Source of the DNA: Shigella phage phi25-307
DNA length: 64,000 nucleotides
Sequence record: MG589383
Reading direction: 5' to 3' (one strand)
The translations under genes and the position numbers were made by a program. Shown here one piece after another: positions 14,943-26,496 of the stretch. The notes beneath the pieces were generated by a model that made no database searches, was not told where the DNA came from, and saw only the letters and a list, made by a program, of their open reading frames with translations. Position 1 is the stretch's first letter. Every line of letters starts with the position of its first letter.

Positions 14943-15401
14943 TTATAGGATGGTAGTGAGCACCTTATATAATGATTTGCCCATTACATATTCCCATTGA
15001 GAAGGTTTAATTAAAGCGAATGCATCAAATTCAGGAATCTGTCGTCCGTCTGGGAATGTATGATAGGAATTACAAACACTGTTTCTGAATTGCTCGTGCT
15101 CTACAGGGATGGTATATAGGAACAGATGAATATTCTTATTGTCTGAGTAACGATGTTCACCTAGGTCTTTCAGGAAGGCAGGGTCATATTGTGTAAACCC
15201 AGTTTCTTCTTCGCATTCACGAATAGCTGCTTCAATAGGAGATTCACCGGGCTCGACACGACCTTTAGGAATATCCCACCGATGAGCTAAAGAACCTTTA
15301 GGACGAGAACCAGTTACACGCCCCATGAATAATTCTTTATCTTCGGTAAGGAAAATAATACCAGCTGATAGTTCTTTCACTTTATTTTTCTTACTCATCA
15401 T
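14943..15401 (-). CDS. nudE: Nudix hydrolase NudE
   Basis: Nudix box GRVEPGESPIEAAIRECEEETG; start chosen at ATG 15399-15401 (AGGAA RBS; ATGATGA overlap with upstream stop). Confidence 0.85.
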   Translation of the reverse strand: MMSKKNKVKELSAGIIFLTEDKELFMGRVTGSRPKGSLAHRWDIPKGRVEPGESPIEAAIRECEEETGFTQYDPAFLKDLGEHRYSDNKNIHLFLYTIPVEHEQFRNSVCNSYHTFPDGRQIPEFDAFALIKPSQWEYVMGKSLYKVLTTIL

Positions 15402-15796
15402 CTCAAATTCCTGCATTCGGTAATAAAACGTTCAACTTCATTATTCTTGGCCTTTATCTTGTCTTTACGTTCCTGTAAACTACTTTTAACAAGATTAATA
15501 ATGATGCCTACAGTACCTCCACCAATTATACCACCAATAATACTTACGATAGTAGATGCTAATAAGATGGCGATAATATCTAGTACAGCAAAGGCACTTA
15601 CTTTAGTACTAAAAAACCATATAGACGGTACAAATATAATCCATCCTGTTATCCATTGGCACTTATTGAAAAACCTTTCAAGCTCAGCTTGAGTTGTTCG
15701 TATTACTTCATCAATAGGTTGATATCCATTAATGTATCTGTTCACGATAATACCTGCTGGCTGGTCGATTTTAAATTCTTGGCAAATATGTTTCAC
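15398..15796 (-). CDS. membrane protein with C-terminal ERFITECR motif, 132 aa
   Basis: Hydrophobic segments incl. GGIIGGGTVGIIINL; only a GTG start at 15796 with no obvious RBS, so 5' end uncertain. Confidence 0.45.
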   Translation of the reverse strand: MKHICQEFKIDQPAGIIVNRYINGYQPIDEVIRTTQAELERFFNKCQWITGWIIFVPSIWFFSTKVSAFAVLDIIAILLASTIVSIIGGIIGGGTVGIIINLVKSSLQERKDKIKAKNNEVERFITECRNLR

Positions 15797-15867
15797 TAAG
15801 TAGGATGGACAGGATGTCCAATCTACTGAATAGTATGAAATACCTTCATTGCCATCAACTATTCATA

Positions 15868-16173
15868 TTATTTTCCTCGACATTCTTTAATGAAATTTTC
15901 TAGATTGGTAGATTCAATAGCTTTTTTACGAGCTTCTGCGTGTTCTTCTTCAGACAATTTACATTTATAATTGACCCAGACATTATGGTCGAAACTAGTC
16001 GTGGCATATAATAACAATGCTCCAACGAATAGCAAAAACGGTGATAAGAATACAAAACCAGGAACACCATCCATATCGTAAGCCTTTTGTAATACTGCAA
16101 CAGAAAGAGCTGCGTAAAAAGGTGATGCAAATATTGTTAAAAGACCAATTCGGTTGGTTTCGCCTAATTTCAT
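15868..16173 (-). CDS. membrane protein with C-terminal ENFIKECR motif, 101 aa
   Basis: Two hydrophobic segments; ATG 16171-16173, GAGGAG RBS; early promoter 16202-16231. Confidence 0.6.
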   Translation of the reverse strand: MKLGETNRIGLLTIFASPFYAALSVAVLQKAYDMDGVPGFVFLSPFLLFVGALLLYATTSFDHNVWVNYKCKLSEEEHAEARKKAIESTNLENFIKECRGK

Positions 16174-16201
16174 AATATTCTCCTCATGTTTTAATAGGAC
16201 T

Positions 16202-16231
16202 ACTATAACATAGTCCTATCATGTTGTAAAC
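16202..16231 (-). promoter_or_regulatory. early promoter with flanking inverted repeat
   Basis: gtaaac 16226-16231, actata 16202-16207; flanked by ataggact/agtcctat. Confidence 0.55.
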
Positions 16232-16243
16232 AGTTTTGCGAAA

Positions 16244-17200
16244 CTATTTGAAAGGTTTTACCATATGGAAATTTTGTTTGAAACGTTTGACATAATCATC
16301 ATGTCCTAAGCTTTGGTACATACTTACTACTTTGCTGTAGTTTTCCCAGGCATACTCACGGAACCAACCAGAGGTGATGCTTGTACAGACTTTTTCTAAT
16401 GCCATCATAAAACTGGCTTCAGGGTTAATTTTAAAGTCATTAGGAATCTGAGAACGTTCTAATGCTAGTACACATGATTCTTCGTATACACCGGCCAATT
16501 TGACCATTTCTGGTAATGATTCGAACTTCTCACGTGAGGTCATGACTTCAGAACCGTCTTTCATATAAAATGTATACGCTGGACGGTCTGTTAGTGCAAT
16601 GGCTTCATGAATAGTATCATGGTCATATGTATAGATATCATCTTTAAAGAACGCACTTTTAGAAGTGTCAAGAACCGGGTGAGCATAGTTCAAGGTTTCT
16701 TTCTGGCGTTTCAGCATAATTTCAGTAAGTTCATCGTTCAGTGTAACACCTTTACCACGAAGATACTGAATATGGTTCATAGTCTTTAAAAAGAACGGAT
16801 TATTTTTCTTGAAACGATGAGACATCTTAATTGCAAGACATATCTCAGGAGTTGCCCAGTAAAACCCATTCAAACAGTCTTTAGACAAATGTTTCTTGGC
16901 GTATTTTAAAAGGTCATAAGAAGACGTGAAATCTTCAGGAGTGAGTTCACCGACTAATTCACGGACATTAGTGATTGCCGGAACAATATACGCTTCAAAA
17001 TGAGTTTCGCGTCCATTATGGAAGCATTTGAAAACTTGGACATCAGGGTTATCTTGATGAACATATACACCCATCATTTGATTTTTGAATGTATTCCAAG
17101 AACCTTGGTCTGCAATAAAGTCCCAGTCACTATTTTTGATAGCGTTAGAATCAATAAGACCATGATAGTGAAGTGCACGAGAACCAATAACTAACATCAT
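16244..17200 (-). CDS. nucleotidyltransferase-like protein, 318 aa
   Basis: N-terminal IGSRALHYHGL...NSDWDF resembles the GS...DxD Pol-beta nucleotidyltransferase signature; GAGGAAA RBS. Confidence 0.55.
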   Translation of the reverse strand: MMLVIGSRALHYHGLIDSNAIKNSDWDFIADQGSWNTFKNQMMGVYVHQDNPDVQVFKCFHNGRETHFEAYIVPAITNVRELVGELTPEDFTSSYDLLKYAKKHLSKDCLNGFYWATPEICLAIKMSHRFKKNNPFFLKTMNHIQYLRGKGVTLNDELTEIMLKRQKETLNYAHPVLDTSKSAFFKDDIYTYDHDTIHEAIALTDRPAYTFYMKDGSEVMTSREKFESLPEMVKLAGVYEESCVLALERSQIPNDFKINPEASFMMALEKVCTSITSGWFREYAWENYSKVVSMYQSLGHDDYVKRFKQNFHMVKPFK

Positions 17201-17228
17201 AATATTTTCCTCGGATTAATTCATTAAC

Positions 17229-17468
17229 TTAAATTTCACGACATGCGATATCATATTCATCCCAGAGGTCATCGTGTGAAGCCTCTACCAATGGAACGAT
17301 TGTACCATTTATGTCTTCATTATAAGGGCAAATTGTACAGTGTGCATCTTCGAATCGAATGCCTTTGTGTTCAGATTTTTTATAACGCATATCGAATATC
17401 TTTGCAAACTTTTCACGAGTAATGGTTTTACCAACCACTTTGGTTCCGATACTTTCGTAATAAATCAT
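17229..17468 (-). CDS. hypothetical small Cys-rich protein, 79 aa
   Basis: ORF track; GGAG RBS; early promoter 17497-17526. Confidence 0.55.
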   Translation of the reverse strand: MIYYESIGTKVVGKTITREKFAKIFDMRYKKSEHKGIRFEDAHCTICPYNEDINGTIVPLVEASHDDLWDEYDIACREI

Positions 17469-17496
17469 TGTGGACTCCGTTTAATTTGATAGGACT

Positions 17497-17526
17497 ACTA
17501 TAACATAGCCCTATCTTGTTGTAAAC
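17497..17526 (-). promoter_or_regulatory. early promoter with flanking inverted repeat
   Basis: gtaaac 17521-17526, actata 17497-17502. Confidence 0.55.
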
Positions 17527-17554
17527 TGTTTTAGCAAGAATAACTAGATGATAC

Positions 17555-17728
17555 TCAGCCTTGAACAGTAATACTATTATTTGATACCGAGATTGCGTTC
17601 TGGAGATTCAGTCCTGCGGTATCTTCAATCCATAATGTAACTTCTTCGCGTTCTTCTGTTGCAATTTGGAACAGGTTTTCCAGGGCAGCTACTGCCGTAC
17701 GTACAGCACAATCTAATTCACGAGACAT
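17555..17728 (-). CDS. hypothetical small acidic protein, 57 aa
   Basis: Hand-translated MSRELDCAVRTAVAALENLF...; AAGGAAATCAT-ATG RBS; below ORF-track cutoff. Confidence 0.4.
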   Translation of the reverse strand: MSRELDCAVRTAVAALENLFQIATEEREEVTLWIEDTAGLNLQNAISVSNNSITVQG

Positions 17729-17737
17729 ATGATTTCC

Positions 17738-18010
17738 TTAGCAAGTGTGAGAAGACGCAATCCAACCGCCAGTTTCGAGGCTCAGATTGTAGTCGTATTG
17801 GTAAACGTCAGCCCATTCAGCATAGCCGTTTTTTGTACAACGTTCAAGATCGGCTTTAAGCTGTCCGGGTGAATGATAGGTTCCACCCATACCATAAGCT
17901 GGATACAAGTCGAATGTTGTGTTTTGTTTATCAGCAATTTCTTTGGCAGCATCAATAGCTGCATAGATTTTTGCTACAGCTTCAGCCAATTCGGTTTGTT
18001 CTTTAGACAT
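17738..18010 (-). CDS. small protein ending GGWIASSHTC (paralog of 18020-18325)
   Basis: ORF track; shares N-terminal MSK and C-terminal G-W-x-x-SS-x-x-C with the adjacent gene. Confidence 0.6.
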   Translation of the reverse strand: MSKEQTELAEAVAKIYAAIDAAKEIADKQNTTFDLYPAYGMGGTYHSPGQLKADLERCTKNGYAEWADVYQYDYNLSLETGGWIASSHTC

Positions 18011-18019
18011 AGTGATTCC

Positions 18020-18325
18020 TTAGCACAACGCAGAAGACGAAACCCAAGCACCTTCAGTAATAACGTAACCGTTACCTTCACGCTTAACATCGCCACCATT
18101 ATTTTCAATTTCATCTTTCATCCACTGGGATACGATTTCACCCTTAGGATAATAAGTACGACCGCTACCATAATCACCTACAGAAAATGATACGGCATAT
18201 TGGTCTGCGATCTTTGTTGCTTCTTCTTCGATACGTTCAGCTTGATTCAGAAGTTTATAAATTGCATCTGAAGCGGATTCGGCATCATTAAACTCTGGTA
18301 CTTTAATTTCAATAATCTTACTCAT
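18020..18325 (-). CDS. small protein ending GAWVSSSALC (paralog of 17738-18010)
   Basis: ORF track; tandem paralog. Confidence 0.6.
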   Translation of the reverse strand: MSKIIEIKVPEFNDAESASDAIYKLLNQAERIEEEATKIADQYAVSFSVGDYGSGRTYYPKGEIVSQWMKDEIENNGGDVKREGNGYVITEGAWVSSSALC

Positions 18326-18681
18326 TTTCTACATTCCTTAATAAAGTTTTCGATTGTTTCATTTTCACGTCTAGCTAGGAGTTCATTATAACTAATCATT
18401 TGAGAAGCGTAAATCTTTTTATTTTTCTTGTTATGGTTTATAAAATCGTAGTAAAAATAGACTACAGTACAAAATGATGCGATGGATGCAAAGGCTTGGG
18501 TATACCGTAAGTCCTGCCATTGGTCTGTGAATCCACCAGTGTTCCCTATAAATCCTAACACAACGCCGTCAATAAGAAATCCGACTAATCCAAAGGCAAA
18601 TCCCATGCCAATACTCATAATAAAAATTAGAATGTTCTCGCCAAGAGAAGGCCATACGGTTAAGAGTTGAGGCTTTTGCAT
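18322..18681 (-). CDS. membrane protein with C-terminal ENFIKECR motif, 119 aa
   Basis: Hydrophobic N-terminal two-thirds; AAGGAG RBS. Confidence 0.6.
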   Translation of the reverse strand: MQKPQLLTVWPSLGENILIFIMSIGMGFAFGLVGFLIDGVVLGFIGNTGGFTDQWQDLRYTQAFASIASFCTVVYFYYDFINHNKKNKKIYASQMISYNELLARRENETIENFIKECRK

Positions 18682-19055
18682 CTTATCTCCTTAACGAATT
18701 CCATAGCTTCTTCATATTCATACTTTTTAACAGCTTCATCATACTGAGCTTGGGCTTTTGCGCACTGAACTTTCCATTCTCTTAATCGGGCTCTGTGATG
18801 ACGTCCTTGGTACCAATATCCCACCCAGTTAATAGGCATTAATAAAAATGGTACAATAAACGACCCGGCTATAATAAGTAAAAACACTGCATCAGACGAT
18901 ATAACTTCACTAGAATCTAAAACAGCTCCTATAATCATAAAGATTAAAAATGCTAAAGCTAAAATAGGGCCAAATAGTACTTCGTTTGGGATTAATTTAC
19001 GCTTGTATTCATACGCCCAGGGCTTACTTGGCATGTATAGGGTTGGCTTTGACAT
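18660..19055 (-). CDS. membrane protein with C-terminal EFVKEIRCK motif
   Basis: ORF track frame; track start is TTG; first ATG at 19053-19055 used, 5' end uncertain. Confidence 0.5.
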   Translation of the reverse strand: MSKPTLYMPSKPWAYEYKRKLIPNEVLFGPILALAFLIFMIIGAVLDSSEVISSDAVFLLIIAGSFIVPFLLMPINWVGYWYQGRHHRARLREWKVQCAKAQAQYDEAVKKYEYEEAMEFVKEIRCKSLNS

Positions 19056-19620
19056 ATTCTCTACATTCCATAATAAATTGCTCAAGGATTAAATTGTTAG
19101 TGAAATTAGGACTAACAACCATGGTTTCATAAAGCGCATCAATAGCACTTAAAGCATCAGCTCTTTTAAGCAAAGGCTTGCCTTCATACATAGTTTCAGA
19201 ATCGACGATTAACGTAAAGTAATATTTTTTATTATCGACTAGAACTTCAGTATCGATATAAAACATGTTAGACCTTAAGAGCTTATCTCTAAAACCATAA
19301 TAATCTTCAGAGCGTTCGCTGATATAGTCCCGTTCAGTGTTTAAACAACAAACAGACCATGTAGGAGCAATGAAATCAGTGAATCTAATATCATGGTCTG
19401 CAACTAGTTTAGCAATAGCTCTGATATCATGAATCATAATACCTGGGGCTAATAAAGATTTTCGGTTATTTGCATATTCAGTTGTCTCATAAGAAGACGA
19501 CCAGTACCATTTACGTCCAGTTGCAACATATCGTAATGAATCAACTAAAGACGTAGGTGGATTTACCTTATTTCGGAACTCTTCGAACATTGAGTCAATA
19601 TCATTATTTTGGTTTCGCAT
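19024..19620 (-). CDS. hypothetical protein with C-terminal EQFIMECREY motif, 198 aa
   Basis: ORF track frame; start refined to ATG 19618-19620 with AAGGAG RBS. Confidence 0.55.
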   Translation of the reverse strand: MRNQNNDIDSMFEEFRNKVNPPTSLVDSLRYVATGRKWYWSSSYETTEYANNRKSLLAPGIMIHDIRAIAKLVADHDIRFTDFIAPTWSVCCLNTERDYISERSEDYYGFRDKLLRSNMFYIDTEVLVDNKKYYFTLIVDSETMYEGKPLLKRADALSAIDALYETMVVSPNFTNNLILEQFIMECREYVKANPIHAK

Positions 19621-19637: not shown

Positions 19638-19661
19638 CCAAAAGGAGGACCGGAGTCCTCC
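19638..19661 (-). terminator. intrinsic terminator
   Basis: ggaggac-cgga-gtcctcc hairpin followed by TTTTGG on minus strand. Confidence 0.55.
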
Positions 19662-19669
19662 GTATTATT

Positions 19670-20263
19670 TTATTTCAAAGAGTTAATATATTCTTGTACA
19701 TCAGCAGAAGTGGTTTCGACACCAGCTGGAGTGCCATTGAACGTTTCAACACGAGTCAGAGTGTCTTCGATATCAACCTTAGTCAGTGCAGCGATTTCAA
19801 TTACATCATCAGCCGTAGAGATACCAAGGGCATTGGCTGCTCGAGTTTCACGAATGTATTCGAGTTTGATTGCCAGATTCTGACGAGCATCGTCAAGTTC
19901 AACCACCTTACGAGCAATTTCAATTCGCATAGCGGCATACCCGTCAGCTTTTGTATTAAGTTGTTCGGCAGTTCGACGATACAGAAGACCAAGCTTGGCA
20001 TGCATGGTAACATCTTGTCCTTCAGCCAGGAGCTTACGAATTTCACGTTCCTTAGAAGCGGCTTGCTTGTTCTTTTCATTAACAAGTTCGCGAATACGTT
20101 TTTCTTCATTAATAGATTTAACAGAAGCCGTTTTTAGTTCTTTGATTTGGGTAATCAACTTATCTGCAGCTGCGTTATACTGTTCTTCGACAGTCAGATT
20201 TTTAGCCATAGCAGTACTCAGTTTAGTGCGGATGAATTCAACAAGTTTCTTCAGTGTGTTCAT
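19670..20263 (-). CDS. coiled-coil protein, 197 aa
   Basis: Heptad-rich K/E/A/L composition; start refined to ATG 20261-20263; promoter 20305-20334 upstream, terminator 19638-19661 downstream. Confidence 0.55.
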
Positions 20264-20304: not shown

Positions 20305-20334
20305 ATTATACTCTGCTCTCAAGAGTTTGTAAAT
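20305..20334 (-). promoter_or_regulatory. early promoter with flanking inverted repeat
   Basis: gtaaat 20329-20334, attata 20305-20310; flanked by gagagc/gctctc. Confidence 0.45.
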
Positions 20335-25911: not shown

Positions 25912-26496
25912 TTAACGCAAGGAAGGGTGTCTAGAAATGGATTTAGATTCGACCGCTTGACGTGGCTGTTGAGATACAATGACTTCACCATCCTTTTCTA
26001 TCGTCATATACGCGTAGTGAATAGTTGCTACGCACGTAACGGCAGGGTCAGAGTCTTCGGTGTAACTAAATTCAATTTCACTCAAATCAGAAATCCATGG
26101 TTTATAGAAATTTGCCGTCAAAACTACTTCGGTCTTATTGTTGTTTAAAATGTGCAAAGTAACAAACTCGGGACCATCTGAGTGGGCCGTATTATGTCCG
26201 GTTATATAGTTATTAGTGCTGAGCATCCATTTATACATGTTCATCCAGGACGTCATGTCTTCATCAACTATAAATCGTACAACAAAAGGGTCATATTCAA
26301 ATGTGGTGCCTGCACGCATTGCACGTCCTAACCCCATTGTGCCTGTCACAGTTTCAACAACAGGAATTCTCACACCTGGTAATGGAGCCGTTTGGGCATT
26401 GAGCACAAAACCTGAAGTTCGTGTACTATCTGGGATATCCACAACAAAGTTTGTTATATTTGTTTGGTTAAAAATCTGTCTCGCTGGACGAGTCAT
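25912..26496 (-). CDS. 3: gp3 tail completion / sheath stabiliser
   Basis: MTRPARQIFNQTNITNFVVDIPDSTRTSGF matches T4 gp3 N-terminus as recalled; start refined to ATG 26494-26496 (track start is GTG). Confidence 0.8.
   Translation of the reverse strand: MTRPARQIFNQTNITNFVVDIPDSTRTSGFVLNAQTAPLPGVRIPVVETVTGTMGLGRAMRAGTTFEYDPFVVRFIVDEDMTSWMNMYKWMLSTNNYITGHNTAHSDGPEFVTLHILNNNKTEVVLTANFYKPWISDLSEIEFSYTEDSDPAVTCVATIHYAYMTIEKDGEVIVSQQPRQAVESKSISRHPSLR

Follow-up and report, generated by a model that had tools for sequence, protein, structure and literature searches.

A short C-terminal motif shared by membrane and soluble proteins encoded next to a PspA-like gene of T4-type phages: a putative docking helix

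Five open reading frames (ORFs) whose products end in variants of one short motif, FIKECR and the like, lie on the minus strand of a 64,000-nucleotide stretch of Shigella phage phi25-307 (sequence record MG589383; the whole stretch is referred to as the window). An earlier note, made from the sequence alone, had described them as five paralogous small proteins of a family that it did not recognise. The window belongs to an RB69-like Mosigvirus, and its segment 15300-19700 shares 97.6% identity with Escherichia phage vB_VIPECOMC06 and 96.4% with RB69. Judged from full-length profile matches and from the annotations of RB69 and T4, the five ORFs are the T4-type accessory genes e.2, a homologue of RB69ORF133c (ORF133c in the following), e.3, e.4 and e.5, names under which these genes have long been annotated in T4-type phages. 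The PHROG matches had E = 1.3e-36, 9e-50, 5.5e-62, 3.6e-94 and 4.1e-68 for the e.2, e.3, e.4, e.5 and RB69ORF133c groups. The set is flanked by nudE and e (lysozyme) on one side and by e.6 on the other, and the gene order from nudE to e.6 is that of RB69 and T4. All five ORFs have the coordinates, strand and endings given in the note; the genes, their motif codons and e.6 are as follows.

15398..15796, minus strand: e.2, PHROG 2203; two transmembrane (2TM) segments, 5'-truncated; tail ...VERFITECRNLR
15410..15427, minus strand: motif codons of e.2 (FITECR)
15868..16173, minus strand: RB69ORF133c homologue, PHROG 9798; 101 residues, 2TM; tail ...LENFIKECRGK
15877..15894, minus strand: motif codons of ORF133c (FIKECR)
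18322..18681, minus strand: e.3, PHROG 2330; 119 residues, 2TM; tail ...IENFIKECRK
18328..18345, minus strand: motif codons of e.3 (FIKECR)
18660..19055, minus strand: e.4, PHROG 2604; 131 residues, 2TM; tail ...MEFVKEIRCKSLNS
18681..18698, minus strand: motif codons of e.4 (FVKEIR), with Ile in the Cys position
19024..19620, minus strand: e.5, PHROG 2607; 198 residues, soluble; EQFIMECR 11 residues before the C-terminus
19060..19077, minus strand: motif codons of e.5 (FIMECR)
19670..20263, minus strand: e.6, PHROG 1203; 197 residues, probable PspA/Vipp1-like coiled-coil protein and candidate common partner

No match above threshold was obtained for the five proteins or e.6 in local libraries of Pfam, NCBIfam and PADLOC; in a large protein collection, fragments and homologues of these families bear more recent, precomputed Pfam labels (PF26896, PF26873 and PF26876). 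In the literature, no paper was found on the shared tail, on its link with e.6 or on the function of e.2 to e.5, and the main texts of two phage functional-genomics studies are silent on them. A 2025 genome-wide knock-down of T4 lists e.2 to e.6 as genes of unknown function (PMC11879866 supplement).

The core of the motif can be written as Φ-x-x-F-[IV]-x-x-C-[RK]; a Glu before the Cys is lineage-specific. The stricter ending proposed earlier, acidic-x-F-I/V-x-E-C/I-R, applies to four of the ORFs but not to e.4, in which EFVKEIR is off by one at the acidic position. A six-frame translation of the 64 kb window contains [DE]xF[IV]xE[CI]R at exactly four places, all of them C-termini of genes from this set (15398-15796, 15868-16173, 18322-18681 and 19024-19620); the chance expectation, roughly estimated by hand, is ~0.02. 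The tail of e.4, MEFVKEIR, differs from the strict pattern at one position, and its Cys is replaced by Ile. The loose core F[IV]xxC[RK] yields five tail matches in the window, compared with ~0.4 per window in residue shuffles of this AT-rich proteome; the fifth (WFIEICRQ) belongs to a 73-residue ORF at 25927-26148 on the plus strand, antisense to and inside a 196-residue minus-strand ORF, and is a chance match. The loose core alone is not rare enough, and a cross-validated test with a substitution model was therefore run. A hidden Markov model (HMM) of 16 columns was built from 82 motif segments of distant genera only, i.e., those with e.6 at most 65% identical to that of the window; Mosig-, Tequatro-, Dhaka- and Gaprivervirus were left out of the training set. 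When the 520 ORFs of the window were searched, the top five were exactly the five genes (E = 2.8e-6, 1.5e-4, 4.4e-3, 6.7e-3 and 0.03), with ORF133c as the best match (2.8e-6), e.4 at 0.03 and the next ORF at 0.27. The outcomes that the earlier note had named as grounds for giving up the motif, i.e., a frequency no higher than chance in T4-type proteomes or tails that prove unrelated under a substitution model, were not observed.

The composition of the motif was assessed from 108 distinct instances in 37 BLAST-level families. Phe is present in 104, Ile or Val in 106, Cys in 88 and Arg in 103 of them. In the consensus, position -3 is hydrophobic (counting the Phe as 0) and -2/-1 are acidic or polar. 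Position +2 can be any residue and is often Lys, and +3 is Glu in four genera and otherwise Gly, Gln, Tyr, Met, Asn or Ser; paralogues of one genome differ at +3. The Cys is replaced by Ile, Val, Met or Ser in the e.4 lineage. Positions -3, 0, +1 and +4 fall on one helix face, and the tail can be described as a two-turn amphipathic helix with acidic residues on its N-terminal and basic residues on its C-terminal side. The distance from motif to stop is 0-15 residues in most proteins and 24-25 residues in the e.5-like proteins of Pseudotevenvirus. Two candidate roles were rejected on this basis: a C-terminal degron is ruled out by the distance to the C-terminus, which varies from 0 to 25 residues. 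The consensus of the T4 prohead protease (gp21) is L/I-x-E; the I-x-E of FIKECR was discarded as a cleavage site, given that its Glu is not conserved beyond four genera and that the proteins are membrane or cytoplasmic proteins and not head proteins.

The codons vary freely across the 108 instances (Phe TTT 65 and TTC 39; Cys TGT 46 and TGC 42; Arg all six), which shows that selection acts on the protein. The conservation at the protein level, noticed earlier from two copies whose quoted codon strings are exact, thus extends to free synonymous variation over 37 families. One could think of the motif as a by-product at the nucleotide level, in which purine-rich Lys, Glu and Arg codons are retained as the Shine-Dalgarno sequence or start of an overlapping downstream gene. 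Indeed, AAG GAG ATA AGA TG in e.4 contains the Shine-Dalgarno sequence and ATG of e.3, an AAGGAA in e.3 is located 9 nucleotides before the next ATG, and the ATG of e.4 follows the motif Arg codon of e.5 by 4 nucleotides. However, the motif is at a different distance from the next start in each of these cases, ORF133c has no overlapping downstream gene, and Pseudotevenvirus keeps the motif 24-25 residues before the stop. Moreover, it is F, I/V, C and R that are invariant, with all synonymous codons in use, and not the K and E whose codons form Shine-Dalgarno sequences. Such an origin is extremely improbable, and a signal in the DNA is essentially excluded as the explanation of the motif.

Relatedness of the proteins outside the motif was assessed after removal of the motif and everything C-terminal of it, by BLAST clustering followed by profile searches. 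The e.3 and e.4 proteins shared one BLAST cluster, which profiles tied to nine further 2TM families. Among the e.2-like, e.5-like, ORF133c and e.3/e.4-like groups, no link with E < 0.01 was found in the profile searches. The masked proteins thus fall into e.3/e.4-like, e.2-like and e.5-like groups and a group of soluble proteins of ~95 residues, with ORF133c unlinked. The designation of all five as paralogues was too strong, as the masked sequences link only e.3 and e.4. What e.2 and ORF133c have in common is the motif and the layout of two transmembrane segments plus tail; e.5 shares just the motif. With the motif included, ORF133c gave weak cross-matches to the PHROG families of e.2 (E = 0.0019) and e.3 (E = 0.098).

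These cross-matches, the paralogy of e.3 and e.4 outside the motif and the 2TM-plus-tail layout of e.2, ORF133c, e.3 and e.4 are what would be expected if the genes were old tandem duplicates, each having kept its C-terminus for structural reasons of its own and with no partner in common. We consider descent alone quite improbable, because the motif is also carried by soluble e.5-like proteins (178-315 residues) and by the ~95-residue proteins, which bear no resemblance to the membrane proteins once masked, and because it is the most conserved part of the e.5-like proteins. Its presence on at least four unrelated or very distant scaffolds points to a module rather than simply the tail of one duplicated gene.

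Two hydrophobic segments are predicted in each of e.2, ORF133c, e.3 and e.4 and none in e.5, in line with the four membrane proteins counted before. The tails of the four 2TM proteins comprise 40-56 residues (30-55 by another count) with 8-11 Lys or Arg. In e.4, the N-terminus is positive, the loop is acidic and devoid of Lys and Arg, and the tail is positive, a charge pattern that indicates an N-in/C-in topology. The notion of a shared cytoplasmic tail on differing membrane anchors therefore holds as far as the cytoplasmic location is concerned, by the positive-inside rule, but not for e.5, which is soluble and has no transmembrane segment; at 198 residues, e.5 is not one of the "small proteins" either.

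A terminal amphipathic helix with basic flanks on a soluble protein such as e.5 resembles the membrane-targeting helices of MinD and FtsA, and the tail could accordingly be an in-plane membrane-binding helix that has no protein partner and brings e.5 to the membrane. The hydrophobic stripe at -3, 0, +1 and +4 with its basic flanks and the position at or near the C-terminus would suit such a role. The fraction of shuffled sequences that reach the observed hydrophobic moment was 0.02 for e.3, 0.07 for e.2, 0.13 for ORF133c, 0.25 for e.4 and 0.53 for e.5; the moment thus exceeds that of the shuffles for e.3 (p ~0.02) and e.2 (p ~0.07) but is not significant for the other three, e.5 among them. 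Membrane-targeting helices conserve amphipathicity and not the identity of residues, whereas F (104/108), C (88/108) and R (103/108) are near-invariant over 37 families. In addition, acidic residues directly precede the motif, and, unlike the helices of MinD and FtsA, it also occurs on proteins that are already embedded in the membrane. A membrane-binding helix is on balance improbable.

The motif recurs in at least 37 BLAST-level families and at least 12 genera. In T4, the tails are KEFVIDCRKIK (e.3), KFVKESRCKSQS (e.4) and EKFVKECREYVK (e.5). Identity between the window and the T4 type is 88% for e.6, 46-49% for e.5 and 35-40% for e.3, and the motif is retained in orthologues that are otherwise 35-49% identical. 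Orthologues with the motif are present in T4, MX01 (Dhakavirus), DK-13 (Gaprivervirus), Yersinia phage P8, KLB31 and IME523 (Kanagawavirus), JY1 (Jiaodavirus), Merlin (Moonvirus), Vettismorki (Winklervirus), the Aeromonas phages 65.2 and AS-gz, and GAP161. Further motif families comprise several more 2TM proteins per genome and soluble proteins of ~95 residues (e.g. LDAFIQMCRRNQNVSS in KLB31), and most Tevenvirinae loci hold 2-5 motif proteins per genome. On the gene strand of the fetched loci, the core is found in the last 25 residues of 145 ORFs and elsewhere in an ORF once. In the whole T4 genome it is confined to an e.2 remnant, e.3 and e.5. The annotated T4 e.2 product has 102 residues and lacks the second transmembrane segment and the tail; the gene (locus L006 1073-1561; AF158101.6 67472-67960) has two in-frame stops, TAG and then TAA, and the remnant downstream encodes ...NNFITECRKLK. 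A search of a collection of 5.8 billion proteins with the tail profile returned only nine short fragments of the same families and is uninformative on distribution.

The first gene of the cluster, e.6, is preceded by an early-type promoter-like site and is much better conserved than the others (~61-65% identity to the Klebsiella and Enterobacter phage types); this adjacent candidate for a common partner, the best one in our view, had been overlooked in the earlier note. The AlphaFold2 (AF2) model of e.6, with a predicted local distance difference test score (pLDDT) of 76, shows a helix at the N-terminus, then a long helical hairpin, and short helices towards the C-terminus (helices 2-22, 25-80 and 86-145 are predicted). 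When the model was compared with the PDB by Foldseek, ranks 1-8 were all Vipp1 (E 4.6e-4 to 2.6e-2), and the list also contained PspA (7abk) and the archaeal CdvB2. One GenBank record annotates its e.6 homologue as 'shock protein A', and the likeness to PspA had already been noted in a genome announcement, with an HHpred probability of 99.9% for an e.6 homologue against E. coli PspA (4WHE) (PMC7862958). Searches at the sequence level were weak or negative: e.6 matched neither PspA_IM30 (PF04012) nor the PspA models of NCBIfam, a profile search of PDB sequences with e.6 reached Vipp1 only at E ~1, and hhalign of the e.6 alignment (effective sequence number, Neff, 2.2, i.e., of low diversity) against an approximate E. 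coli PspA sequence was not significant. Overall, e.6 is quite probably a PspA/Vipp1-like protein of the ESCRT-III superfamily.

The neighbourhood of e.6 was inspected in 48 loci, taken from annotated phages and IMG/VR contigs and covering Tequatro-, Mosig-, Dhaka-, Gapriver-, Kanagawa-, Jiaoda-, Moon-, Winkler-, Ishiguro-, Tulane- and Pseudotevenvirus as well as further contigs. In 44 of these 48 e.6-containing loci, the core falls within the last 30 residues of the ORF that comes next after e.6; of the other four, two read F[IV]NYCI, another carries a frameshift, and in the last the motif is a little more distant from the C-terminus. All seven of a further set of loci have the core in the ORF after e.6, 7-25 residues from the C-terminus. 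An e.5-like ORF with the core near its C-terminus thus follows e.6 directly in 51 of 55 loci from at least 12 genera, and every e.6-positive genus in the sample has an e.5-like ORF directly 3' of e.6. The two genes move as a pair: in phages of Aeromonas and Cronobacter they lie side by side in another neighbourhood, beside nrd genes; the motif is retained there, and no 2TM copies were detected within the flanks sampled. With symmetric flanks of 8 kb, 106 motif ORFs lie downstream of e.6 and one upstream.

The e.5-like proteins are 178-315 residues long. An alignment of 19 non-redundant members has three invariant columns, i.e., the motif Phe, the motif Cys and one Asn, and the motif is its best-conserved window of eight columns. 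The AF2 model of e.5, based on a 13-sequence alignment, has a pLDDT of 59; the motif is placed in helix 177-192 with a local pLDDT of ~76. Foldseek of this model against the PDB gave no meaningful match. The e.5 profile found six proteins among 1.84 billion representatives, all of them close relatives or fragments and with no link to a known domain; the e.5-like family diverges too fast for HMMER.

From the sequences, the tail may be a cytoplasmic docking helix for a common partner, for which e.6 would be the most plausible candidate; we put this forward tentatively, as a reading that is quite possible. A common partner, as suggested in the earlier note, is the most economical interpretation, because these proteins diverge fast and no other block in them is conserved as well as the motif, and we count it as supported in that sense. 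The motif would be a portable module for protein docking, with its amino acids under selection while the rest of each protein diverges fast or is unrelated. The likeliest partner would be the product of e.6, the gene that heads the same transcription unit. The 2TM proteins might then tether e.6 to the inner membrane on its cytoplasmic side, or position it there, and e.5, being soluble, might regulate or cap it. In this picture e.6 would be a conserved hub, and its adaptors would evolve fast but retain a single docking helix. The docking role of the helix, its binding by e.6 and an effect on membrane integrity are what we infer; the generalised motif, its restriction to the neighbourhood of e.6, the universal e.6/e.5-like pairing and the adaptor proposal are, as far as we can tell, new.

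PspA-family proteins work with small membrane partners, and the proposed arrangement is modelled by analogy on the recruitment of PspA by PspB and PspC in enterobacteria and of LiaH by LiaI in Bacillus. In these systems too, a gene for a PspA-family coiled-coil protein is located beside genes for small inner-membrane proteins, cytoplasmic C-terminal helices could recruit the hub, and one conserved hub is combined with several small partners. The candidates described here differ in being phage-encoded, present in 2-5 copies per genome and fast-diverging, and one of them (e.5) is soluble. The e.2, e.3, e.4 and ORF133c proteins did not match the PspB, PspC and LiaI/LiaF models of Pfam and NCBIfam; Pfam gave sub-threshold matches of e.4 to Yip1 and LapA and none for e.2 or e.3. 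We know of no description of an F-[IV]-x-x-C-[RK] motif in Psp partners. The reuse of a short C-terminal amphipathic helix as a docking tag on different proteins also recalls the MIM-MIT type of ESCRT-III docking. However, MIMs are located on the ESCRT-III subunits and bind the MIT domains of Vps4-type ATPases, whereas the phage motif is located on the putative partners, and the phage cluster has neither a MIT domain nor an AAA ATPase. The PHROG families 2203, 2330, 2604, 2607 and 9798 treat each of the proteins separately and give no function.

The data on conservation and specificity would apply equally to a docking helix for a partner other than e.6, such as a conserved host protein (host PspA, FtsH or another inner-membrane factor of gamma-proteobacteria) or the tails themselves, which by binding one another would build a hetero-oligomer in which the 2TM proteins anchor soluble e.5. 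The hosts of all motif-positive phages are gamma-proteobacteria, several motif proteins (2-5 per genome) co-occur in most Tevenvirinae loci, and Aeromonas phage 65.2 has two e.5-like paralogues. The AS-gz and Pseudotevenvirus loci keep the motif with a single motif protein in the flanks sampled, which argues against purely mutual binding. As for a host partner, RB49 also infects E. coli, yet it lacks e.6 as well as the motif, so that a partner encoded by the phage fits better than one provided by the host. In this T4-type coliphage, the core has no occurrence in 1446 ORFs, and e.6 was not found by tblastn with three divergent queries or by HMM. Another partner is possible but somewhat unlikely.

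Several points weigh against docking to e.6. The synteny of e.6 and the e.5-like gene could stem from an inherited operon structure and not from contact between the products, and the helix could pack within e.5, the AF2 model of which is too poor to tell. The substitution of Cys by Ile, Val, Met or Ser in the e.4 lineage means that the Cys is not strictly required. RB49 is a negative control of a single genome. Finally, the knock-down of T4 e.2 to e.6 is scored 'Not Fit', i.e., without a fitness defect in the laboratory, in the supplement of that study (PMC11879866 supplement), so that no phenotype anchors the model.

If docking to e.6 is taken as a starting point, a wider and rather doubtful extension is that T-even-type phages encode their own PspA/ESCRT-III-like machine for membrane maintenance, into which an expandable array of adaptors is plugged by one C-terminal helix. 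The adaptors would comprise the universal e.5-like protein along with 2TM proteins and small soluble ones, and the array would steer e.6 to particular membrane sites or lesions. Such a machine might serve to keep the inner membrane energised through prolonged lysis inhibition, or to counter abortive-infection effectors that depolarise the membrane. If confirmed, the motif would be the first to be defined for partner recognition by a PspA-family protein encoded by a virus, and would raise the question of why lytic phages invest in maintenance of the inner membrane. If the partner differs from e.6, the motif would still be a handle for finding it. For the e.2 to e.6 genes of T4, the lytic phage that has been studied best, which are dispensable in laboratory knock-down screens, it offers a concrete and cheap hypothesis.

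The remaining features of the transcription unit and of the e.2 region are listed below.

20305..20333, minus strand: early-type sigma-70 promoter-like site 5' of e.6 (TTTACA-17-TATAAT, 11/12; consensus scan only)
19644..19661, minus strand: GC-rich hairpin GGAGGACTCCGGTCCTCC and then TTTT, in the gap that separates the stop of e.6 from the Shine-Dalgarno sequence and start of e.5
16202-16230: early-type promoter-like site for ORF133c alone (promoter consensus scan)
15797..15867, minus strand: deletion scar, with ATG AAT AGT (the first three codons of RB69ORF132c) and then TGA

The hairpin could act as a partial or attenuating terminator, giving more e.6 than downstream products. The e.4 gene overlaps e.5 by 32 nucleotides and e.3 by 22 nucleotides. 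Its start is ambiguous (18660-19085, minus strand): TTG at 19085 would give 141 residues, ATG at 19055, the choice in the closest relative, gives 131, and a third possible start, the later ATG of the RB69 record, would give 124; every choice overlaps the end of e.5.

The ORF at 15398-15796 is a 5'-truncated e.2 with a GTG start that lacks a Shine-Dalgarno sequence, and its stop overlaps the start of nudE. Residues 2-130 match positions 33-166 of the PHROG 2203 profile, and e.2 of RB69 has 163 residues. After the TGA of the scar, in comparison with RB69, conserved N-terminal codons of e.2 follow in another frame and without a start codon. The deletion took RB69ORF132c (228 residues) and the first ~10 codons of e.2, and RB69ORF130c is also absent. 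The closest relative, vB_VIPECOMC06, has the same layout.

A second tandem family, PHROG 899, consists of soluble proteins of 70-100 residues and is represented in the window at 17738-18010 and 18020-18325 (both minus strand). Its members end in W-[VIF]-[SA]-S-S-x-x-C directly before the stop (GAWVSSSALC, GGWIASSHTC, WVSSSMEC and WQPSSC), occur in 2-5 copies per genome and are interspersed among the motif-tailed membrane genes; further ones are located at L004 6282-7321, L005 6351-7372, L008 2801-3875 and L012 9066-9835 of the fetched loci. The ORF at 17555-17728 (minus strand, 57 residues) corresponds by homology to the N-terminal part of proteins from DK-13 and KLB31 whose ending is W-x-SSSY-x-C; it stops before this ending and appears to be a truncated member of the PHROG 899 family. 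At 16244-17200 (minus strand) a homologue of RB69ORF134c with 318 residues is encoded (Pfam DUF7277 and DUF7275, E = 5e-79); it is a conserved member of this cluster in all Tevenvirinae genera sampled.

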